Positions 9,645-19,821 of a stretch of 26,542 nt of DNA are shown here, in pieces; within the stretch, counting starts at the first letter, position 1, and each line of letters begins with the position of its first letter. A program made the position numbers and the translations under genes. The DNA is from Silvanigrellaceae bacterium. GTDB taxonomy: Bacteria; Bdellovibrionota_B; Oligoflexia; Silvanigrellales; Silvanigrellaceae. The DNA lies in the NCBI GenBank assembly GCA_049423385.1, contig JBMSQQ010000049.1:1-26542 (forward strand). The letters are read 5' to 3'. The notes below the pieces were generated by a model. That model was not told the DNA's origin. It worked only from the letters and a program-made list of their open reading frames with translations, and made no database searches.

Positions 9645-9757
9645 GAGTTCGATTCACTTGTTTTTTTCGGATTCTGCGTATTTAAACCCTCAATTCGCTT
9701 CAATTATTTTCTTCAGGGAAAAATTTTCCTGCCGATGCCTCCAGACGGGGGTTGGCA

Positions 9758-10399
9758 ATGAGCAAGGAAGCTTCGCCACAACAAAAACTGAAACTGCATC
9801 AACTTGAGGAGCAAGTTGTCGGGCTCTACAGCCACAGCCTGTTCCTCAGGGAGGATGAAGAAAAGACGTTGCAACAGGCCGCCCGGGACCTCGACAGGCA
9901 TGCGGCGTTTCTTTTTCTGTTTGACTCGGATGAAACCCCAACTGGACATCCTTTGGGGCGACGTATCATCAAGTTGTTGATCGAAAAATTGCGGATTCGC
10001 AAATCGGGGCGTCCTTCAGATGCCGAGCGTTTGATAAAGATGCGCGAAGAGGCCATGGCATATCGGCGTGCCCAGATCAAAAAGGGATTCCTGGAGCGAT
10101 GTCTTTCTTCCTTCTCATTTTCACCGCTTCGCAAGCGCAGCGAAAGCATGAAGGCAACAGATTTGAAAGTCGAGGTTGCCAGTGCAGAGGCTCGGCAAAA
10201 TGCGGCATATCAATTGCTTTCGTTGATGTTTGCCGACAGGTTCTCGCGCCCGGAAAACAACAGTGAACAAGATCAGGTTCAGTCCATGGTGCGAGCCATT
10301 CGTCATCTTCAGGAATTGCGCAAGAAAAACAGAATGTACAGGAAAATTTATTCCGAGGTCCGAAGAAACTCGATCCCGGACGCACGAGGGTTGCGATGA
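9758..10399 (+). CDS. Hypothetical basic, helical cytoplasmic protein
   Basis: 213-codon ORF; ATGA overlap with the next gene; no recognisable motif. Confidence 0.7.
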   Translation: MSKEASPQQKLKLHQLEEQVVGLYSHSLFLREDEEKTLQQAARDLDRHAAFLFLFDSDETPTGHPLGRRIIKLLIEKLRIRKSGRPSDAERLIKMREEAMAYRRAQIKKGFLERCLSSFSFSPLRKRSESMKATDLKVEVASAEARQNAAYQLLSLMFADRFSRPENNSEQDQVQSMVRAIRHLQELRKKNRMYRKIYSEVRRNSIPDARGLR

Positions 10400-11151
10400 C
10401 CGACGTTAAAAAACTGATGACTGAGATTCAGAAATTTGTCGATTCCTCGTCGAAGGAATTGTTGAATTCGGTTGTGAGTGCTTTCACGGGTTCAGAGTTT
10501 TCAACCAATATCGAATTGAAAAAAAACAAGGAAACCGCGAAATATCTCAGTGAAAATTCGAAGCGCGAAAAAAGTCTGAAGGAACTGAACGACTTTATTG
10601 TCCTTTGGCTCGAGGTTGTTGAAAAGAAGATGATGCACCAGCAGTTGCTGGATTTCTCGGGCGCGGCCGAGGATGTCTTGAAGCAACTTGCTGACTCTGA
10701 TCCAAATCTGGACATCATCCTGCGTGATTTCCAGTCGCTCATTTCAAGACCGACGGAGTTTGTTGATGACTACATGGCTTTGCGAAACGAAACAGATGAA
10801 CTCGAGGGCAGGTTGACACAGTTGGTGTCTCTTCCTGTTCTCGAGGACGTTGATTCCGCTCAATGGATTGAGCCTTTCAAACTGATGCCTGCATTTCCGA
10901 ATCAACCCACCCGCTCAGCGCTGAAGATTCTCACGAGCACTTCAGTCGAGTCGAATGAATCAAAGGCCCCAATGACCGTCGTGGCGCCATCGAATGTTCC
11001 ATCACCGTCGCCCAGGCCAGAAAATTACCGACCGCTGCCGGCAAATATTTCCGATGAGTTCGAATATCCCGAAAGTCTATTGGTCATCACGAAACCTCCG
11101 GTAAAAAAAGCGAATACTTCTGCTACTCGAACCGTGAAGCTCAGGGGTTGA
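10396..11151 (+). CDS. Hypothetical acidic coiled-coil protein with Pro-rich tail
   Basis: 251 aa ORF translationally coupled to the upstream gene; helical N-terminal 150 aa, low-complexity C-terminus. Confidence 0.72.
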   Translation: MTDVKKLMTEIQKFVDSSSKELLNSVVSAFTGSEFSTNIELKKNKETAKYLSENSKREKSLKELNDFIVLWLEVVEKKMMHQQLLDFSGAAEDVLKQLADSDPNLDIILRDFQSLISRPTEFVDDYMALRNETDELEGRLTQLVSLPVLEDVDSAQWIEPFKLMPAFPNQPTRSALKILTSTSVESNESKAPMTVVAPSNVPSPSPRPENYRPLPANISDEFEYPESLLVITKPPVKKANTSATRTVKLRG

Positions 11152-11259: not shown

Positions 11260-12066
11260 ATGAACCTGCTTTCAGTGTTTTCCCTCATATTGGCCGTGGC
11301 GGTTCTTGGATTCGCAATCCTCACCGCCTCAAACAACCCGCGCAGTTTTCTCGATTGGCACGGCATTTTGGTTGTCATGGGTGGAACTTTCGCGGCCGCT
11401 GCAGTTTCCATCCAGCTCGACAAAGTCTTTTTGCTCATCAAAATCTACATTGACCGCACCATCCGTGGTCGCAAAATCGATTATCAGCAAGTCACAAGGC
11501 AGTTGATGATCATTGCCGATCAAATCCGCAAGGAAGATTCCGAGCTTCCGAACACGATAAAGGATTTGAATGACCCCTTCATGAGGGAAGCACTTGGACT
11601 GGTCCTGGATGACAGTCTTGAGAAAGCTGCGATTGTGAAGGTCTTGTACCAGAGGTCCAACACCCTGTTCGAGAGGTATCATCTCGATGCCTCCCGATTC
11701 AAAGGGCTGGGAAAATATCCTCCGGCAATGGGTCTTCTCGGAGCCGTGACGGGTATGATCGCGCTCCTGGGGGGGCTTGGAAAACCAGGCGCCGAAAAAA
11801 CGATGGGCCCTGCGATGTCCATCGCACTTGTCGCGACGCTGTACGGAATTGCCCTCGCGAACTTTTTCGTCATACCGATTGGTGAAAGCCTGATGGATTC
11901 GGCGAAGGAAATGAAGCGCAAAAATGAAATCATCATTCATGGCATCAAGCTCATTCTCGATGACACGAACCCTGTTCTGATGGAAGAAGAATTGAATTCA
12001 TTCCTGCTTCCTTCTGAACGCATTGACAGGAAAAAGATTGGCAATTCGAAACAGGCAGCGGCATGA
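11260..12066 (+). CDS. motA: Flagellar-type stator A subunit (MotA/PomA family)
   Basis: Four TM pattern; VVMGGT, R90 (IRKE), DPFM, PAMGLLG (P155), MSIALVATLYG, NFFVIP (P206), NP..EEELNSFL. Confidence 0.95.
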   Translation: MNLLSVFSLILAVAVLGFAILTASNNPRSFLDWHGILVVMGGTFAAAAVSIQLDKVFLLIKIYIDRTIRGRKIDYQQVTRQLMIIADQIRKEDSELPNTIKDLNDPFMREALGLVLDDSLEKAAIVKVLYQRSNTLFERYHLDASRFKGLGKYPPAMGLLGAVTGMIALLGGLGKPGAEKTMGPAMSIALVATLYGIALANFFVIPIGESLMDSAKEMKRKNEIIIHGIKLILDDTNPVLMEEELNSFLLPSERIDRKKIGNSKQAAA

Positions 12067-12932
12067 GCAATTACGGCGAACATCCCGATAACCATTCGAG
12101 CACCTTGCATGAAGAAGTCGAGGAAGGGGAACCTTGGCTCGTGTCCTATGCCGACATGATGACCTTGCTCTTCGGATTTTTCGTGTTGATGTACACGTTT
12201 GCGGTTTCGCGACTGGACGACGAGGGCGACAACTGGGTGCGGGTTCGCAAGGAACTGGCGGCGTTTTTCGGCGGTGAAAAAGGCGCGGACTCGGACAACA
12301 AGCAAAACGGAAACAGCAAAGACTTGTTCAGTCCAAACGTGGGTATCGAGAGCTCCAGCAACACCGGCTCAAAAAAGCAGTCGAGCGGCATTTTTGAAGA
12401 TGCCAAAACAGACGCCGAGCTCAAGGAAATCGACGACGAGGAAGCGTTCAAGAATGGCTTTGCAGCCGGTACGTACGTCAGTTCCGGAAAAGATCTCAGC
12501 AAGACCGACATTGGCGGCGCGCTGAAATTGCGAAAGATTGCCGATTCCGAGGATTCGCTCGAGCTTATCATTTCAGACAACGTCCTGTTTGGTGGCAAGA
12601 ATTCGAGTTTTCTACCGGAAGGGGAAGCTGCTCTTGCCAAGGTTTGCCAACGCATCTCCGGCATCAAGTTTCCTTTCTTTCTGGGAGTTTCATCGTTTTC
12701 CCAAAATTCAGCCGGCACCCAGGGAAAGCCTGCATCCTACCATTTCCCGACCAGCGAAAGTTTTCAGCGGGCCAACCAGGTTTTGCAAAAGTTGAGCCAG
12801 TGCCCGGCGGCACAGGCCCAGGGTTCACGTTTGTCAGCCATGGCCGTTGGGCATATCCCCATGTCGCAAACGATGAAGGGTGTGCTTGAAAGCGGAGTGA
12901 TCATCCGCATCCATGTGGCGATGGATTTCTGA
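12063..12932 (+). CDS. motB: Stator B subunit (MotB family) with a degenerate OmpA-like domain
   Basis: WLVSYADMMTLLFGFFVLMY TM with the essential Asp (D31), plug helix WVRVRKELAAFFGG, ATGA overlap with motA; C-domain follows the OmpA-like layout but lacks GHTD and NRRV. Confidence 0.9.
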   Translation: MSNYGEHPDNHSSTLHEEVEEGEPWLVSYADMMTLLFGFFVLMYTFAVSRLDDEGDNWVRVRKELAAFFGGEKGADSDNKQNGNSKDLFSPNVGIESSSNTGSKKQSSGIFEDAKTDAELKEIDDEEAFKNGFAAGTYVSSGKDLSKTDIGGALKLRKIADSEDSLELIISDNVLFGGKNSSFLPEGEAALAKVCQRISGIKFPFFLGVSSFSQNSAGTQGKPASYHFPTSESFQRANQVLQKLSQCPAAQAQGSRLSAMAVGHIPMSQTMKGVLESGVIIRIHVAMDF

Positions 12933-12933
12933 T

Positions 12934-13896
12934 ATGATTCAGTTTTCCAACAGACCGCCCGTCCGGCAGCCCAGGAACGGAATTCTCGTTTTTCCAAATC
13001 AAAAAAAATACGATTTCTTGAAATTTCCACTGATGATGACTGCAGCGGCTTGCATGATGTCTGTTGCTTCAATGATCTCGTATAAGATGCTTTTTGGAAA
13101 AACGATGTCATTTCCAAAAGCGAAAGAGGGTGTGGCTCGCGTCCTTGAATTCAAGGGGAGAGTTCTTTACCGCAACCATGGCGAATTTGTGTTTCGCGAG
13201 ATTACGAAGGGTCAAATACTTTCACGTTTCACAACATTGTTCAGCGACAGCAATGGTGATGTCCTGCTCGAATATGCAGGAAAAAAAGCTGCGGCAGTTG
13301 CGGTGCCCAAAGACTCGATATACCGGCTTGAGCAAAACCTGCCTTTGTCGATGCTCATGCGCAGGGGGTTCACCCGTTCGCGGGCAGACTTCCTTGAAGA
13401 GGCCATCACTGGCGACGTTCTCGACAAGGAAAGTCAAATCCTTGCTGCGGGTGTTCAGGACACGGGCGAGTTTGTCGAAGTCCTCGACAGTCGGGAAGCA
13501 AAACTCAAAGCAGTGCGTTTTGGAATTCGTGTGGTGATGGACATGAAACGAATTCCCGTGACTTTCCCCTTCAGCAACCTATTTGTTTGGCGAAATCCTG
13601 ACCTGGGATTTGCCAAGGCACCCATTTCGTTTGGGGGCTCATTGAACGAACCGCTTCAGGGTTATTTGTGGCAGGTCAAACCCAAAATGAAAATCGTCTG
13701 GAGTGGTCTCGTTTCCAAGGAGACGCGTCGGCTTGTCCTGACGCTCAGTGAGTCCGGTACCTATGTTTTCCAGGGATTTGGAAAAGGCGGTATGAGTCGA
13801 ACCCGCAGCGTGAAGATCGTCGTCAACGAAAAGACCGAGAATTTCAATTTCTTTCCCAACGGTATCACCCGCGGCGATTCGGTCATTTTCAACTGA
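12934..13896 (+). CDS. Membrane-anchored FecR-like domain protein with a C-terminal beta-sandwich
   Basis: ATG 1 nt after the motB stop; one hydrophobic segment, then VARVLEFKGRV..F..ITKGQIL..TLFS..VLLEY..VAVPKDSIYRL (FecR-like pattern); C-terminal SGTYVFQ suggests Ig/FN3. Confidence 0.6.
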   Translation: MIQFSNRPPVRQPRNGILVFPNQKKYDFLKFPLMMTAAACMMSVASMISYKMLFGKTMSFPKAKEGVARVLEFKGRVLYRNHGEFVFREITKGQILSRFTTLFSDSNGDVLLEYAGKKAAAVAVPKDSIYRLEQNLPLSMLMRRGFTRSRADFLEEAITGDVLDKESQILAAGVQDTGEFVEVLDSREAKLKAVRFGIRVVMDMKRIPVTFPFSNLFVWRNPDLGFAKAPISFGGSLNEPLQGYLWQVKPKMKIVWSGLVSKETRRLVLTLSESGTYVFQGFGKGGMSRTRSVKIVVNEKTENFNFFPNGITRGDSVIFN

Positions 13897-13935: not shown

Positions 13936-16170
13936 TCAAGCTGCCCGCTTCACCATCAGTAAGCTGATGTCATCCTCGAGCGGATGTTGCCCGCGAAACT
14001 CATCAATTCTCGAATATATATTCGACATGGCCTGATCCAGCCGCTCGGCACCTCGGATAGCCTCATGAATAATCTGACGAGCCTTCTTTCGTCCGAGGAA
14101 TTCGCCAGCCTGGTTTCGGCATTCCAGAAAGCCATCGGTAAACAAACAGATCACGTCACCGGGAACGAGGATGGTTTCCACGGGCAAGGGTGGCACTGAT
14201 GAATTGATGATTCCGAAGCCAAGAGAGTCGTAAACTCCTGCAGAGTTGGCTTTTCTTTGGCCCGTTCTGTCTGAACTCGAAAGCAATTTGAGATCATCAT
14301 CGCCCTGAATGAAAACAAGTGGGGCCGGATGTCCAAAATTCAAAAACCTCACTTTTCCATCGTCAATTGAAATGGACATCATGAACATTGTCATTACAAG
14401 CTTTCCAGCGGAAACTTCTGCAATCAGGCTGTCCAGAACCAGAGCACACTCACTCAGGAATGATGACATTTGCTCTGTAGGCCTGTCACGGTGAAGCAGG
14501 TGCATCGATTCCACCGCACCGCGAACGGAGGACACGAGGAGAGTGGCATTCAATCCGTGGCCTGTGACGTCTGTCATGTAGCAATAAAGAGTGCGCGATG
14601 GCGCATGGTAAAACGAGCTGTGCCAGTCGCCGCCCACCGTTTCTGCTGTTTGTCCCTTTGCGGAAATCTGGATATTGGCGGGAATGTTTGCGCTGATGGA
14701 CAGGTTTTCCTGAATGGCCGCAGCGGCCTCGAATGCCAATTGCATTCGTCCCTGCTCAACGGCAACATTCTTGAGCTCAATGTTGAGCAAAGTACTGCGC
14801 AAGGTGGATGAAAAAGCACCCAAAAATCTCAACGAGGCAACATCGAGGTCTTGAACTGTGAGAGGACCCAGGACAATCCAGCCGCGGTGCTTCTTGAGGC
14901 TCGGATTCCGATGCAGATTGCAAAAAAGCAACTTCTTTTCGTGGTGCAGATATACGTCCTCTTCCACCTCGTCGACCACATAGTTTGCACCATTGACTTC
15001 TTCGAGCAGCGCAAGAATGGATGTTTCGCTGAAGTGTCCGGAAAGTCCAAGAACGACGCCACCGGTTCGGCTGACCTCAATTTGATATCCGTTGTTGAAA
15101 TGAGCAGCGAAAAGTTCATTTGGAAAAACCCGAGGATCGACGAGAGCCTGTAGGGCACGCTTGAGCGCAGAGCCTGCGTCCGACTCCTTGGCTGTGGCCC
15201 TGACGAGTTCCAGAACCTGGCTCAGATAATCGGTCGTCCTGGTCAATGCGGAGTCACGGATCCGCAAGAGCGTTCTCATATTTTCGATGCGCTGGAACGT
15301 CTCGGAAATTTCGTCCTTGAAATAGTAACTTAATTTATAGTTGAAATTTCCACCCGCAATTTGTGATGCAGCTTCATTGATGTCGGACAATGGAGAAAGA
15401 GACCGCTGAACGAAGAAGATTGTTGCAGTGATTGAAACCATGACCAGGGCAAACAGGATGGTGAAGATGACAATTGTCAGTGCGGTGATTTGTCGCATTG
15501 ATTCTTCGATGAAGGCATCCGTGACGATGATGGCGTTGGAATTGGGCGCTTGCGAGAAGGCAAATGCCCGTGTTTTGCCATCCAATTCGAAGCTGTGAAC
15601 ACCCTTTTTTACGCCCGATGAAATGAATTCCTTGACGTATCTGCGCACCAGTTCGACAGGTCGGCCGGCCGTCTCGATAATGTCGCCAGTGGTGGTCACC
15701 AGAATTGAGGAATTGGGAATATTTTTCTTCATGGTGCTGATGATTTCAGTTGCGTCCGAAAAGACCAGGTTTTCATCGTTGTCGCGTGTGTAGGCAAAGA
15801 CTGTTTCGTTTTGCAGAGTGAAAAACAATTCTCCCTTTGAAGGCCATGCAACAAGGTTGTTGCTGTTGGCGTTCATTGTGCCCGTCCAGGGAATGAAACT
15901 GAGTTCCTCTCGTTTTCTCAAGGTCTCAAGAATCACCTGAGTGACAGACATGGAGACGGATTCACTTTCCGCAAAAGCTGCGTCGAACGCGTAGGATTTC
16001 TTGTCTTTTGCCAGGTAATAGTAAAGTGCGAATGAAAACAGGCTGATGAGACCCAGCAGGATGCCTGCAGCGAGAATCGCAATGCGGTTCCTGAGTTTTG
16101 TCGTCTTCCACAGGCCGACGAGATCAATGTAGCCAAACACATCCGCCAGCGTGAGCTTCAGGAATTTCAT
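13936..16170 (-). CDS. Membrane sensor PP2C (SpoIIE/RsbU-type) phosphatase: TM-periplasmic sensor-TM-HAMP-GAF-like-PP2C
   Basis: HAMP PLSDINEAASQIAGGNF..DEISE; PP2C motifs VGGDW, DVTGHG, NFGHP, FTDG, DDIS are all intact. Confidence 0.92.
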   Translation of the reverse strand: MKFLKLTLADVFGYIDLVGLWKTTKLRNRIAILAAGILLGLISLFSFALYYYLAKDKKSYAFDAAFAESESVSMSVTQVILETLRKREELSFIPWTGTMNANSNNLVAWPSKGELFFTLQNETVFAYTRDNDENLVFSDATEIISTMKKNIPNSSILVTTTGDIIETAGRPVELVRRYVKEFISSGVKKGVHSFELDGKTRAFAFSQAPNSNAIIVTDAFIEESMRQITALTIVIFTILFALVMVSITATIFFVQRSLSPLSDINEAASQIAGGNFNYKLSYYFKDEISETFQRIENMRTLLRIRDSALTRTTDYLSQVLELVRATAKESDAGSALKRALQALVDPRVFPNELFAAHFNNGYQIEVSRTGGVVLGLSGHFSETSILALLEEVNGANYVVDEVEEDVYLHHEKKLLFCNLHRNPSLKKHRGWIVLGPLTVQDLDVASLRFLGAFSSTLRSTLLNIELKNVAVEQGRMQLAFEAAAAIQENLSISANIPANIQISAKGQTAETVGGDWHSSFYHAPSRTLYCYMTDVTGHGLNATLLVSSVRGAVESMHLLHRDRPTEQMSSFLSECALVLDSLIAEVSAGKLVMTMFMMSISIDDGKVRFLNFGHPAPLVFIQGDDDLKLLSSSDRTGQRKANSAGVYDSLGFGIINSSVPPLPVETILVPGDVICLFTDGFLECRNQAGEFLGRKKARQIIHEAIRGAERLDQAMSNIYSRIDEFRGQHPLEDDISLLMVKRAA

Positions 16171-18395
16171 GCGACGCTTTCCTTGAACTCAGCTGCAGTC
16201 TTTGCAAGTTCATCTGGCAGCGGAGCACCCATCGAATTGGCAATCTTTTCGATCAAGTTGATGCGCAATCCAAGATCCGCCCTGAGCATTTCAAGCATTC
16301 TGTTGCAAACCAGCGAGAAAACCTCTGCCTTGTCGTTGCCGGCGGCGTTTTTGCGCTTCTGTGAAGTGTTGATGTTCTCAAGTTCTTCCAGGAGTGCTTC
16401 AAGAGCCTTTGTTTCCTTTGGATAGAGATCCAGAATCTTTTGGCGCAGGACGGGATCCGTGAAGAACAGGAAGTTGGCCTTGCGGGCGATGGGAAGTTTG
16501 TCGATGACCCCGCGGATGATGTTTGGCTCCATCAATTCAAGGTCTCGGGTAAAGAATCTTTCCTGGAGAAGCTCAAAGCGCAGGCTGAGATCATCTGCGC
16601 CGAGAAAGTCCAGAATCTTGGCCTCTGACGTTTGTGTGCTGCCCTTGAGCATGGCTCTGAGGAGTCGTTCCTTGTCGATGTTCTTCTGCTCGCCCAGTGA
16701 CTCTTTTCTGCCGTCGATTTTGTCAATGAATGCCGGTGCCGGTGCCTTGCTGGAGTCGACCTGGCCCAGGCCTTCCATAATTTCCTTGAGCCTCTCAGCA
16801 GCCAATTGATTTGAAAGTTCCAGCGCTACACCCTGAGGCAGCAGGCGCATGACAATGCTCGATTCCTCCGTGGAAATCTCATTGAAGAGTTCCTTCAGTC
16901 CAGAGACGTCGAGTTTGAGCAGTGCCTTGCGGATGGGTTTTGTGTCGTAACTGAATCTCAAAAGAGCCGTCTGGCGGGGAATCATTCCGGCAAGCATCAG
17001 TTGTGCAGCCTCGAGGCCTGGCAACATTTCCGAGCCCTCCTTCCAGGAGGCATTCAGGCTTTCGTCGAGTTTTCGAATCAGTTTGTTTGGCAGCAGTTCG
17101 AGTGCCGGCTTGAGATTATCGTAACCAGAATAGAGAAGAAGGCTGTTGAGCGAGTTCATCCCGTTGTCGCCACTGGCGATGTCGACCAACACTTCTCCCA
17201 CTGTAACGGGGTCTTTCGAGCACCACTGTGCGACGTTTTCGGAAAGCTGAATGCGTGTCTGGGCCAGCAGATCCGCTTCCTTGTCGAGGCTGAATTTCGA
17301 TTTGGTGCTCAGTGAAGACTTCAATTCCTGCTGCAGTGGCCCACCGACATCGGCCGTGTTGGTTGCAGGCCCGGCATCCTGAGATTCGCTGTCAGGTTTT
17401 GCCGTGGCAGCCTGTGCTGCCTTGGCCACGTTGCCGATGGCCTGGGCGACGCTTCGGCCTGTAAAAAACACTGCAAAGCCCACGAGGACGAATCCAATCA
17501 GTGCGGCGAGGCTCATGAACAGCCCGCTGAGCGATTGATTCTTTGGATTGAGCAGATCACCGACCCAAGAGGTTTGACCTTCCTTTTTTTCTGCTTCGTC
17601 GGTTTTGATCTCGGCGAGGTTGTTGAACTTGATCCTGTCATTGGCATTGTTTTCATTGAGGGCAGAGGTACCCAAAAGTTTCACGATGGCCTTGCGCAAC
17701 TCGGTTCGCGACTCCTCCTTGAATTCTGTCGGAACGTGAAGTGTCATGCTGAGTTCGACGAGATAATCATACAAAGAGTATGAAAAAGGCGTGGGCTGAT
17801 AGGAGGACATGGGCGAAGAGAAGTTGATGCTCGGTGCGATGGCCTGCTTCTGTGTTGTGGGCAGTTCTGTTTTTTTTGCTGAAGTTGGGGCGATGTTTCC
17901 GGTATTGAGAATGCCAAATCGGGCGCCCGGTTGTGCGAGGTCGGGGTTTGAGTCGGACTTGGGCTGAAGGGGAGTCTCCGGATTTTGCAGTGCATTTGCA
18001 GCTTTCAAAAAGCTGAGAAACTGCGATGTGCTTTCGCTCCACTGTTGGCGAGTCTGTTGCTGCTCTTTCGTCCTTTCCTGCTGCTGATGCTTTTGAAAGT
18101 CCTGATTGAGCTTGTTTCTGTCGACGTTCAATTCAATGCTCACGACAGGTTTTCTTTTGTCTTTGAGTTCAGCAACAACAAGCGACTTCTCTGCCAGGTC
18201 TGTCACGTGCTTTTGAATCTCGTCGCGCATGCGGATGCGTTCGATTTCAGGCAAATTGAAGGTTTGTTGCACTGCGGTCTGTGCAAATGCGATGGGCGTG
18301 AGAGCAGAATGACAAAGGCAAAGCAAGGCCGTGGCAAGCACCGCCGCTGAAATCAGTCGCAATCCGATATTTCCGATCCGGTCATACCAGTGCAT
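16167..18395 (-). CDS. Single-chain FliF(RBM3)-TM-FliG-like protein
   Basis: ATG 18395 with AAGGAAG SD; signal peptide ending AFA-Q; split RBM-like domain; one TM; DPVTVGEVL (FliF C-tail-like); FliG N/M/C-like ARM segments including EAKILDFL..RFFTRDLELME..LRQKILDLYPKETKALEALLEEL. Confidence 0.72.
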   Translation of the reverse strand: MHWYDRIGNIGLRLISAAVLATALLCLCHSALTPIAFAQTAVQQTFNLPEIERIRMRDEIQKHVTDLAEKSLVVAELKDKRKPVVSIELNVDRNKLNQDFQKHQQQERTKEQQQTRQQWSESTSQFLSFLKAANALQNPETPLQPKSDSNPDLAQPGARFGILNTGNIAPTSAKKTELPTTQKQAIAPSINFSSPMSSYQPTPFSYSLYDYLVELSMTLHVPTEFKEESRTELRKAIVKLLGTSALNENNANDRIKFNNLAEIKTDEAEKKEGQTSWVGDLLNPKNQSLSGLFMSLAALIGFVLVGFAVFFTGRSVAQAIGNVAKAAQAATAKPDSESQDAGPATNTADVGGPLQQELKSSLSTKSKFSLDKEADLLAQTRIQLSENVAQWCSKDPVTVGEVLVDIASGDNGMNSLNSLLLYSGYDNLKPALELLPNKLIRKLDESLNASWKEGSEMLPGLEAAQLMLAGMIPRQTALLRFSYDTKPIRKALLKLDVSGLKELFNEISTEESSIVMRLLPQGVALELSNQLAAERLKEIMEGLGQVDSSKAPAPAFIDKIDGRKESLGEQKNIDKERLLRAMLKGSTQTSEAKILDFLGADDLSLRFELLQERFFTRDLELMEPNIIRGVIDKLPIARKANFLFFTDPVLRQKILDLYPKETKALEALLEELENINTSQKRKNAAGNDKAEVFSLVCNRMLEMLRADLGLRINLIEKIANSMGAPLPDELAKTAAEFKESVA

Positions 18396-18557
18396 GAATC
18401 TTCCTTTGTTCCTCTTCAAATATCGGGCAGATTTGTCCAATGAGTTTGGGCCTTGGATGCCGCACGTCAAATTACTTTCAGGATTCGAGTCAATTCAAGG
18501 CACGGATATTGCCGGCTTGCGCGAATCATCCCGGCAATAATTTCCCACGGGATGAGA

Positions 18558-19211
18558 TTAAAAACCGAGGACGGCTCCAACAGAAAGTCCGATTTTTTGC
18601 CCGGTGTAGGCAATTGTGCTGGTTCCCACGTTGATTTGGTATTGCAGGGAGCTTGAAATTGCGAGTCCCGAACTGATTGCGTACTGGCTGCCAATTCCCA
18701 GACCCAGTCCAAGATAATCCGAAGATGCATCGAAGTTTTGAAGCACCGTGCGCAAAAGAGCTCTTCCAAAAGCAACGTTCAAAGAAGCGAAGTGACGAAA
18801 TTTCTCCGTTTCACTCAATTGCATGCCTTCAAAACTCACTGAAGAATCGCTTGAAAGTGAAATGGGGTACCACTGCACGATCACGCCGAGATTTTGATCA
18901 TAATTTCGTCCAATCGGCGGATTGGGGTCATGACCCAGAAAGCTTGTCAGGCCCACCCAGACGTCGGGGTGAATGCGCTGCGTCAAGCTCAGATTCAAAT
19001 TCATGAATGAAATTCCGCTGCGCTCGGTAAAACCTGAGACAGAAAAGCTATTGAACTCGCCTCCAATTCCAAGCGCAGTTCGCTTGGCCGCGTCGCCAGC
19101 CTTCGCCGGCATGGGCAGCGAGACAATGGCTGCAGGCAGAATTGCAAAAAGCAACGCCTTGCTGAGCAGGTCAGTTCGGCTTCTGTTGGGTGCCTTTTTT
19201 GATTTGTTCAA
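18558..19211 (-). CDS. Small outer-membrane beta-barrel protein (about 8 strands)
   Basis: Signal peptide ending AKA; amphipathic strands (LGVIVQWYP, LGLGIGSQY, ISSSLQYQ); terminal IGLSVGAVLGF with C-terminal Phe (BAM signal). TTG start uncertain. Confidence 0.82.
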   Translation of the reverse strand: MNKSKKAPNRSRTDLLSKALLFAILPAAIVSLPMPAKAGDAAKRTALGIGGEFNSFSVSGFTERSGISFMNLNLSLTQRIHPDVWVGLTSFLGHDPNPPIGRNYDQNLGVIVQWYPISLSSDSSVSFEGMQLSETEKFRHFASLNVAFGRALLRTVLQNFDASSDYLGLGLGIGSQYAISSGLAISSSLQYQINVGTSTIAYTGQKIGLSVGAVLGF

Positions 19212-19821
19212 TGAAGTTCCTCGTGACTGTGTCGTCGGGGTCGAGTTCCGTTCCTCGGGTCAAGCTTGCAACGGCAGCCTGGAGTTCACCTTTCTGGAAC
19301 TGAATTGAGCCTTCCAGAAAATAACTGATGGCCAGGTTCGGATACTTCTCGCGTATTTTCACCGTCAATCTCTGCGCATCATCGTAGCGTTTCTCGATGA
19401 TTCCGCGCTCGGCGTCGAGAATGTCGCGCACCAGGGCATTCAGGTCCGAGGGTTTCTGTTGCTCACTGCTTTTGGGATCAACAATCTTCTTGAGACTCAG
19501 TGAGGCCTTGAGTTCACCCCTGAGCGATGTTGGCAACAACAGTGTGGCCGTTTCGTGGCCCTCAAGCGTTGCTCTGATGAGTGCTGGTCCTTGTCGAACA
19601 AGCTCGCCCAATTTGTCTGAGTTCAGCGAAACGGGAGATTTTCCAAGAGTCGCAGGTGCTCCTCCCGATGCTGAAATAGCCGTGAGTTCAGCCCCTGCCG
19701 GTTCCGTGGTGATTTGGAGGCTGGCGCAAGCTGCGAGCAAAATTGTTTGCACAATCGAGCAAGCCAGCAGTCGCCGAAATCCTTGAGCGCTGAGTATTGG
19801 TTTGTTGTCTTTCACTCGCAC
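19171..19821 (-). CDS. Lipoprotein with PEGA-like domain and TPR repeats
   Basis: Lipobox LAAC; LQITTEPAGAEL..LGKSP..ATLEGHE (PEGA); YPNLAISYFLEGSIQFQKGELQAAVASLTRGTELDPDD (TPR); AAGGA SD before GTG. Confidence 0.85.
   Translation of the reverse strand: MRVKDNKPILSAQGFRRLLACSIVQTILLAACASLQITTEPAGAELTAISASGGAPATLGKSPVSLNSDKLGELVRQGPALIRATLEGHETATLLLPTSLRGELKASLSLKKIVDPKSSEQQKPSDLNALVRDILDAERGIIEKRYDDAQRLTVKIREKYPNLAISYFLEGSIQFQKGELQAAVASLTRGTELDPDDTVTRNFIEQIKKGTQQKPN

Follow-up and report, generated by a model that had tools for sequence, protein, structure and literature searches.

A predicted one-piece rotor protein joining a FliF-related domain to FliG, encoded beside flagellar-type motA and motB in a Silvanigrellaceae bacterium

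A minus-strand gene on contig JBMSQQ010000049.1 of a Silvanigrellaceae bacterium (GenBank assembly GCA_049423385.1), within a window of 26,542 nucleotides that was analysed as a whole, encodes a protein in which a periplasmic domain probably related to the flagellar MS-ring protein FliF is followed, on the same chain, by a transmembrane (TM) helix and by domains homologous to the whole of the rotor protein FliG. The gene is part of a conserved module with a dedicated flagellar-type MotA/MotB pair, and its product is, on balance, probably a rotor in one piece, serving an envelope motor that derives from the flagellum but stands on its own. A first-pass annotation of this DNA had proposed a natural FliF-FliG fusion; the single chain and the succession of a FliF-related domain, a TM helix and FliG domains N, M and C stand, whereas FliF is represented by its C-terminal half only, namely the third ring-building motif (RBM3) and the second TM helix (TM2). 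To our knowledge, FliG rotors occur only in flagella. Literature searches, in which subscription papers were thinly covered, returned engineered fusions only and no description of a natural FliF-FliG fusion or of the module; likewise, the accessible text of a study of MotAB phylogeny (PMC12505986) contains a single mention of FliG and no account of such a module.

Architecture of the fusion protein

The claimed open reading frame (ORF) is real, and every motif quoted for it was found in its place. Counted from the TTG at 18470, the ORF (16167-18470, minus strand) comprises 767 amino acids (aa); the ATG at 18395 is the likelier start because a Shine-Dalgarno-like AAGGAAG lies just upstream and a homolog with 84% identity (P0001) begins at this position. 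Residue numbers given here refer to the resulting 742-aa form, the earlier 767-aa numbers being 25 higher. An AlphaFold model built from a 45-row alignment (mean predicted local distance difference test score 78.5, predicted template modelling score 0.48) shows an N-terminal hydrophobic helix followed by a helix at 50-74, a strand at 84-91, an insert at 93-207, a strand at 212-221, a helix at 227-241 and a strand at 255-259. These strands and helices coincide with the two RBM halves proposed earlier (76-117 and 236-285 in the 767-aa numbering), and a single RBM is seen between residue 50 and the membrane. Next come a TM helix at 287-311 (hydropathy peak 292-310), in agreement with the TM segment proposed earlier (314-337 in the 767-aa numbering), and a disordered linker (331-366) that leads into helical domains (370-741). 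In 1.84 billion representatives, phmmer retrieved 49 matches at E<=0.001, mostly of 670-825 aa and aligned over much of their length. At a uniform cut-off, a hydrophobic peak at approximately 240-385 is found in 44 of 45 aligned family members, P0040 being marginal, and identity between rotor subfamilies is 16-26%.

The cytoplasmic part is homologous to FliG domains N, M and C, in that order. In a comparison of a 45-member profile with the PDB, four FliG structures rank first (E 5e-5 to 9e-4, approximately 175 positions over M and C) and MgtE follows behind them (E 0.001, approximately 60 positions), while a 64-member cytoplasmic profile aligns to residues 7-293 of the genome's own FliG at E 7e-16 among 15,735 ORFs. 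The possibility, raised by the first-pass annotation, of a match to generic ARM or MgtE-N repeats only is thereby set aside, since the profiles put FliG ahead of MgtE. The top 12 rows of a Foldseek search are all flagellar FliG or C-ring entries, and VIA-align superposes the middle and C-terminal regions on FliG-M and FliG-C (Table 1); the N domain has as its sole structural basis the whole-chain superposition of residues 411-714 onto FliG 5-324 (8vib_G; Z 8.6, root-mean-square deviation 9.4). The query itself has no match above cut-off to Pfam FliG_N, FliG_M or FliG_C or to TIGR00207, and some homologs, including a paralog on contig C59 of the source genome and the one at locus L191, pass FliG_C and FliG_M. 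Both the EHPQ motif, by which FliG binds FliM, and the Gly-Gly linker motif are lost: HPQ occurs in 0 of 64 family members, and the columns of the two glycines hold mostly P and F. The charges of the torque helix are largely retained, the column of FliG R281 being K or R in 51 of 64 members and that of E289 being E or D in 61 of 64, with column 288 variable; the role of R281 and D288/D289 is described in PMC12505986.

A protein with an MgtE intracellular N domain was considered as a candidate and rejected, as the match covers 45-65 residues inside the FliG-M region, is below cut-off for the query and is accompanied by no CBS or MgtE TM match. MgtE-N and FliG-M are themselves related.

For the periplasmic part, the model predicts an RBM topology, but fold alone cannot separate an RBM from other alpha-beta-beta-alpha-beta domains; the fold search with this domain returned, among others, EscJ (Z 7.9), SpoIIIAG (7.2) and the Vibrio FliF S-ring over residues 255-452 (7.1). 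Sequence profiles point to FliF RBM3, although the signal appeared solely with the wider alignments of 62-64 members, the narrow 45-member alignment giving no significant FliF match in profile-profile comparison (E 0.12-0.41). With the 64-member periplasmic profile, the best non-family match among the 15,735 ORFs is the genome's own FliF (residues 233-460, E 0.076), in a collinear alignment that runs through helix 1, strand 1, the insert, strand 2, helix 2, strand 3 and TM2. At equal database size, 5 of 28 FliF proteins reach E<0.01 with this profile, and hhalign aligns it to FliF 367-447 at E 2.5e-5. Genome-wide searches with a 62-row alignment matched canonical FliF RBM3 in 2 of 5 genomes (E 4.8e-5 and 8.5e-4); against the PDB, SpoIIIAG and two FliF RBM3 structures make up three of its five matches at E<=10, none of them significant singly and SpoIIIAG the best (E 0.088). 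Atlas features gave, as a lead only, YscJ_FliF_C clusters at 0.85-0.86. These comparisons support the view that the periplasmic part is FliF RBM3 plus TM2, making the protein a probable half-FliF fusion.

The remainder of FliF is missing: for TM1, RBM1 and RBM2, a search of the genome with PF01514 (YscJ_FliF) found nothing but canonical fliF, and a probable signal peptide takes their place. No beta-collar is present in the model, which instead shows a helix (93-137) and a low-confidence loop, and strands could still form only in the ring. The disordered insert contains the most conserved periplasmic feature, an R-F/L-G-x-L-N motif (residues 159-164, positions 17895-17920; G161 in 45 of 45 members, N in 43 of 45), which is a candidate partner-binding site. 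As to the FliF C-tail claimed earlier, its position is right and its match is weak, with 2 of 30 FliF proteins at E<0.05 (0.008 and 0.048); when the cytoplasmic profile is compared with FliF, the strongest local matches lie within the final 50 residues of FliF, immediately ahead of FliG-N. Structures of the FliF-C/FliG-N complex are absent from the fold-search listings, which does not exclude the fold, and a complex prediction with three copies of residues 44-266 scored 0.41 against a mark of 0.42 and is used neither way. Overall, the profile alignments bear out the claim that the domain order equals the fliF-fliG gene order. Salmonella RBM3 by itself forms rings, according to PMC8786727, and RBM2 carries a loop required for assembly of the export gate, according to PMC8092281; thus, the retained half of FliF would be the one that sets the ring, and the lost half the one that houses export.

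A conserved module and its distribution

In the window, a minus-strand run of genes for a tetratricopeptide repeat (TPR) lipoprotein, an outer-membrane barrel, the rotor protein and a HAMP/PP2C protein converges on motA, motB and a gene for a FecR-like protein. A MotA-anchored search retrieved 357 relatives, of which the best 80 loci, by their titles mostly from metagenome-assembled genomes of Bdellovibrionota, were examined; a rotor ORF is present in 62 of these 80 and is full-length in 57. Among the 57, phmmer detected motB in 54 and the FecR-like gene in 6, with the other partners as listed in Table 1, all counts being lower bounds. Rotor and MotA identities track each other across 47 loci (rho 0.71, from pairs that are not independent). 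Both stator proteins are of flagellar type, as indicated by full-length MotA homology and by the plug and TM Asp of MotB, and score below equivalog cut-offs; the MotA R89 column is R or K in 46 of 57 loci, the Asp motif is present in 54 of 54 module MotBs, and a GHTD-like motif is kept in 48 of 54. A quick IQ-TREE phylogeny of MotA (86 rows) has long-branch joins for the canonical stator, and no order of events was drawn from it.

None of the 24 ORFs of the window is an export, rod, hook, filament or switch gene, and a FliF profile had no match in the best 80 motA loci, where other flagellar genes were not scanned. The module yielded no TonB-like gene, and scans for promoters and terminators were at chance level. 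Giant surface-type ORFs occur in 13 of 39 rotor loci versus 16 of 122 windows of the loci's own genomes, which, with near-duplicate loci among the 13, is a hint only.

The source genome (90.6% complete) carries canonical fliF, fliG, fliM and flhA, eight flagellin matches and canonical motAB, all of them elsewhere. It also holds a second complete module (C59:12841-21579, locus L006) consisting of a rotor of 773 aa that contains a periplasmic coiled coil, together with motA, motB and genes for FecR-like, HAMP-PP2C, TPR and barrel proteins, and a third rotor paralog behind motB (C178:1-2583), which is cut by the contig end and whose periplasmic segment is apparently repeated. Across the phylum, 54 of 116 genomes have a match to the periplasmic profile at E<=0.001, a count in which some rows are weak and unchecked and at least one is a FliF; FliF itself is found in 100 of the 116. 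In two other orders, the profile matches 40 of 121 and 20 of 121 genomes at E<=1e-6. By this comparison the module is independent of flagellar genes: rotor, motA and motB occur together in genomes G016 (93% complete) and G009 (84%), in neither of which did FliF, flagellin, FliM or FlhA have a match. Genome G017 is likewise without FliF but is flagellated by other markers.

Several further genes of the source genome touch on this family. An Ig-like ORF follows the C59 module and reaches at least 2137 aa in the relative L058; a FliG-C-like end at C117:7984-8553 may belong to the same gene as the C178 rotor. A stand-alone, divergent FliG paralog of 320 aa lies outside the flagellar cluster (C96:6210-7172), and similar FliG-like ORFs of 344-352 aa are found near modules in L049 and L050. 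Two further MotA-like genes are located at C13:52-870 (at a contig end, no motB seen) and C20:2547-3248.

The module probably extends to the stator pair MotAB2 of Bdellovibrio bacteriovorus. A Bdellovibrionales-level search identified six loci on large contigs with motA, motB, one or more barrels, TPR and a rotor of 576-585 aa, PP2C being present in five; hhalign aligns 440 columns of this shorter rotor with the family (probability 97.9, E 4e-13), and the rotor scores above the Pfam cut-offs for FliG_M and FliG_C. The primers used to clone bd3020 (motB2) encode MGERNKR at the start and PAATQ-stop at the end (PMC11323537, supplement file 2). MGERNKR begins three of the six module MotBs and PAATQ ends one; all three are 319 aa long, a length that fits the 1020-bp bd3020 amplicon minus adapters, and a rotor homolog of 577 aa lies five genes from the MotB that matches the primer termini. 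Because these termini and the length agree, motAB2 (bd3021/bd3020), which the literature presents as one of three flagellar stators, is probably the stator of this module type. None of the papers searched mentions a rotor gene beside motAB2, and bd3014-bd3018 do not occur in the papers listed for that search.

Proposed mechanism and competing explanations

The closest counterpart of this system is the flagellar motor core (FliF MS-ring of about 34 subunits, FliG and MotA5B2 or PomA5B2), with which it shares an RBM3-like domain, a TM helix and FliG N, M and C in the same order, the torque-helix charges, and a MotA and MotB of flagellar type, the ion-binding Asp included. In contrast to that core, a single chain is used, with a signal peptide for TM1/RBM1/RBM2 and a helical insert for the beta-collar; the FliG part has neither EHPQ nor the GG linker and has approximately 30 extra C-terminal residues; the module is without export, rod, hook, filament and switch genes and has a barrel, a TPR lipoprotein and PP2C as partners; and it also occurs where no flagellar genes were found. 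The system would thus work like the flagellar motor core and yet belongs neither to FliF (no TM1, RBM1, RBM2 or collar) nor to canonical FliG (no EHPQ) nor to the flagellar system. The nonflagellar 5:2 ion motors ExbBD-TonB, TolQR-TolA, AglRQS-Glt and ZorAB are similar in being ion motors outside the flagellum with periplasmic and outer-membrane partners. They act via TonB-, TolA- or GltG-like arms or via tails in the cytoplasm instead of through a FliG ring, and differ further in that the module MotA matches full-length flagellar MotA/PomA models.

Engineered FliF-FliG fusions of Salmonella and Vibrio (FliFG) form rings, and those of Salmonella support motility (PMC10941966), in line with the earlier statement that such an architecture is workable. 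They resemble the present protein in that FliG is covalently tethered below a FliF ring, here a predicted one, and differ in containing full FliF and in residing inside a flagellum with FliM and FliN, whereas the present protein is natural, truncated and ancient (approximately 20% identity between subfamilies). SpoIIIAG of the Bacillus sporulation channel, as described in PMC8092281, is membrane-anchored, has a single RBM and forms a 30-mer ring. It is alike in having one RBM whose first and second strands are separated by a large insert, and is the best PDB match of the periplasmic profile, but it has a beta-barrel insert and no FliG or stator, and in the present protein the TM helix follows the RBM.

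The mechanism envisaged is a minimal rotary machine working on the outer membrane, in which MotA/MotB turns a self-assembling ring of one protein (RBM3-TM-FliG) and which has neither a secretion system nor a rod or filament, a proposal for and against which we find the case evenly poised. After Sec export, the RBM3 domains would oligomerise into a periplasmic ring, and the tethered FliG domains would form a second ring beneath the membrane, where ion flow through MotA5B2 would push the conserved torque helix of FliG-C. More speculatively, the motion might pass through the helical insert to the TPR lipoprotein and barrel and on to the outer membrane, moving or deploying surface proteins, while the HAMP-PP2C and FecR-like proteins might regulate the motor or report on it. 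With neither RBM1 nor RBM2 there would be no housing for an export gate and hence no rod, hook or filament, and with no EHPQ in the protein and no fliM or fliN in the module there would be no CheY switch.

Several observations weigh against a one-piece rotor in such a motor. On its own, the query matches nothing beyond MgtE_N in Pfam (E 0.006); MgtE_N is matched by 16 and FliG_C by 8 of 45 members (E<=0.05), and no Foldseek match reaches E<=0.001. Pfam YscJ_FliF_C is found in 0 of 38 periplasmic segments and in just 2 of 15 family proteins, below cut-off (E 0.0015 and 0.0017), and the fold search with the periplasmic domain gave Z 8.1-8.9 for OsmC-like, GMP-synthase and CzrB structures, higher than for EscJ, SpoIIIAG and the FliF S-ring. 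The rotor is missing within 8 kb in 18 of the best 80 motA loci, several of which are on short contigs and seven of which form one MotA clade with other neighbours, and at 5 of 18 further fetched loci a rotor gene stands without motA in 18-19 kb. Of the MotA charges, the second (E97 column) is not conserved; the window MotB is without the peptidoglycan-binding motifs (GHTD, LSxxRA, NRRV-like) that most module MotBs retain. Finally, all three motAB pairs of B. bacteriovorus reportedly contribute to flagellar motility, as the title of Morehouse et al. (2011) has it.

The loss of cell-wall anchor motifs from the window MotB and of one MotA charge would suit a stator-coupled sensor or envelope scaffold rather than a free-running rotor, in which MotAB engages the tethered FliG and either the HAMP-PP2C and FecR-like proteins receive information on load or envelope state or force is applied in short strokes, as in Tol/Ton. 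The translational coupling of HAMP-PP2C to the rotor gene in this genome, the recurrence of HAMP-PP2C and FecR-like genes in other rotor loci and the rise of bd3021/bd3020 by approximately 290-640-fold in axenic fliL mutants, versus 4-16-fold for other mot genes (PMC11323537 Table S6), agree with this explanation. It is nevertheless unlikely in our judgement, as a full FliG with torque-helix charges and a ring-type RBM3 exceeds the needs of a sensor, 41 of 57 loci yielded no PP2C, and most module MotBs keep the GHTD-like motif.

Alternatively, the module could be an accessory of the ordinary flagellar motor, supplying an extra stator set and a fusion protein that mixes into or docks at the MS/C ring. 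Most carriers in the phylum are flagellated, and the module MotB appears orthologous to bd3020/motB2, one of the pairs reportedly tied to flagellar motility. Against this, the module is kept in the two genomes where no flagellar gene was found, and the fusion protein is missing RBM1, RBM2 and EHPQ. Moreover, the FliL protein Bd1076 bound MotB3 and not MotA2 or MotB2, as reported in PMC11323537, and motAB3 is described as universal in the Pseudobdellovibrionaceae strains compared while motAB2 is patchy and missing from epibiotic relatives (10.1101/2025.02.19.638989). A flagellar accessory is therefore a decidedly improbable explanation.

The periplasmic domain might also be an RBM- or KH-like domain that did not come from FliF, being SpoIIIAG-like or unrelated, in which case the term FliF-FliG fusion would be a misnomer and a ring may not form. 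The inability of the fold search to rank FliF above unrelated domains of the same topology, the standing of SpoIIIAG as best PDB sequence match, the helical insert and the weak C-tail match are all compatible with such an origin; the collinear profile alignment through TM2, the significant genome-wide FliF matches and the placement of the best FliF matches of the cytoplasmic profile directly before FliG-N make it very unlikely. A decaying remnant of a duplicated fliF-fliG-motAB cluster, suggested by the patchy distribution and low identity between subfamilies, is scarcely credible given intact ORFs of 550-870 aa in several Bdellovibrionota classes, conserved architecture, charges and neighbours, and up to three paralogs in the source genome.

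If the one-piece rotor is correct, the 5:2 ion motor family would have a fourth use, the module would contain the first FliG rotor outside the flagellum, B. bacteriovorus MotAB2 would be reassigned away from the flagellum, and a natural model would be at hand of a motor existing without the type III export module. A two-part natural motor of stator and one ring protein would be the simplest system for reconstituting torque generation, and it bears on whether the flagellar motor and export apparatus began as separate modules or the motor was re-used later. The link to motAB2 makes the idea testable in the genetically tractable B. bacteriovorus, a predator that is harmless, where the genes are strongly induced in axenic fliL mutants.

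Feature coordinates and neighbouring genes

Table 1. Coordinates in the window of the rotor-like gene, its predicted domains and the other genes of the module
Feature	Position	Strand	Description and basis
Rotor-like fusion gene	16167..18395	-	742 aa (ATG 18395); stop and the following gene's ATG overlap (ATGA)
Probable Sec signal peptide	18282..18395	-	residues 1-38 (AFA/Q, 38/39), replacing FliF TM1/RBM1/RBM2; sequence reading, hydropathy peak 10-28, cleavage predicted
RBM3-like periplasmic domain	17619..18248	-	residues 50-259, alpha-beta-(insert)-beta-alpha-beta; AlphaFold model, fold search, profiles
Insert at FliF beta-collar position	17775..18119	-	residues 93-207, predicted long helix and disordered loop; model and alignment
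Single transmembrane helix	17463..17531	-	residues ~289-311, FliF TM2 position; model, hydropathy, profile alignment
FliF C-tail-like helices	17175..17288	-	residues 370-407, weak match; profile-profile E 0.12-0.31
FliG N-like domain	16962..17165	-	residues 411-478; cytoplasmic profile from FliG residue 7, 8vib_G 5-324 aligned to 411-714
FliG M-like domain	16698..16940	-	residues 486-566, without EHPQ; Z 9.8, root-mean-square deviation 2.2, 78 residues, 4fq0
FliG C-like region	16263..16679	-	residues 573-711, MFxF-like RFF-x-x-DL, torque-helix charges K663 and E671; Z 7.9, root-mean-square deviation 2.5, 89 residues, 1qc7
motA-type stator subunit	11260..12066	+	268 aa; matches flagellar MotA/PomA/MotP models over its full length, below cut-offs
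motB-type subunit	12063..12932	+	289 aa; retains the ion-binding Asp (WLVSYAD), with degenerate peptidoglycan-binding motifs
Membrane-anchored FecR-domain-like protein	12913..13896	+	327 aa; Atlas features, lead only; homologous position in several modules
HAMP + SpoIIE/PP2C membrane phosphatase	13936..16170	-	translationally coupled to rotor gene; in 16/57 rotor loci
Small outer-membrane beta-barrel	18558..19211	-	Pfam OMP_b-brl E 8e-4, below cut-off; 23/57 rotor loci
TPR lipoprotein	19171..19821	-	lipobox LLAAC read from sequence; 39/57 rotor loci

Among the motA loci with no rotor within 8 kb, the clade with other neighbours comprises L147, L148, L156, L161, L163, L168 and L170, and the four that were inspected adjoin a conserved pair of genes of 480-500 and 1000-1350 aa. 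Where a rotor gene stands without motA, the TPR partner is retained in L186, L195 and L198, and the gene stands alone in L187 and L188. Upstream of motA in the window, two unannotated ORFs of 215 and 251 aa (9752-11151) are conserved in the closest relatives, L091 and L092, and may be accessories. A Pro/Thr-repeat ORF at positions 1-1188, running off the contig start and without a Pfam match, has a C-terminal part that reads as beta-barrel-like.

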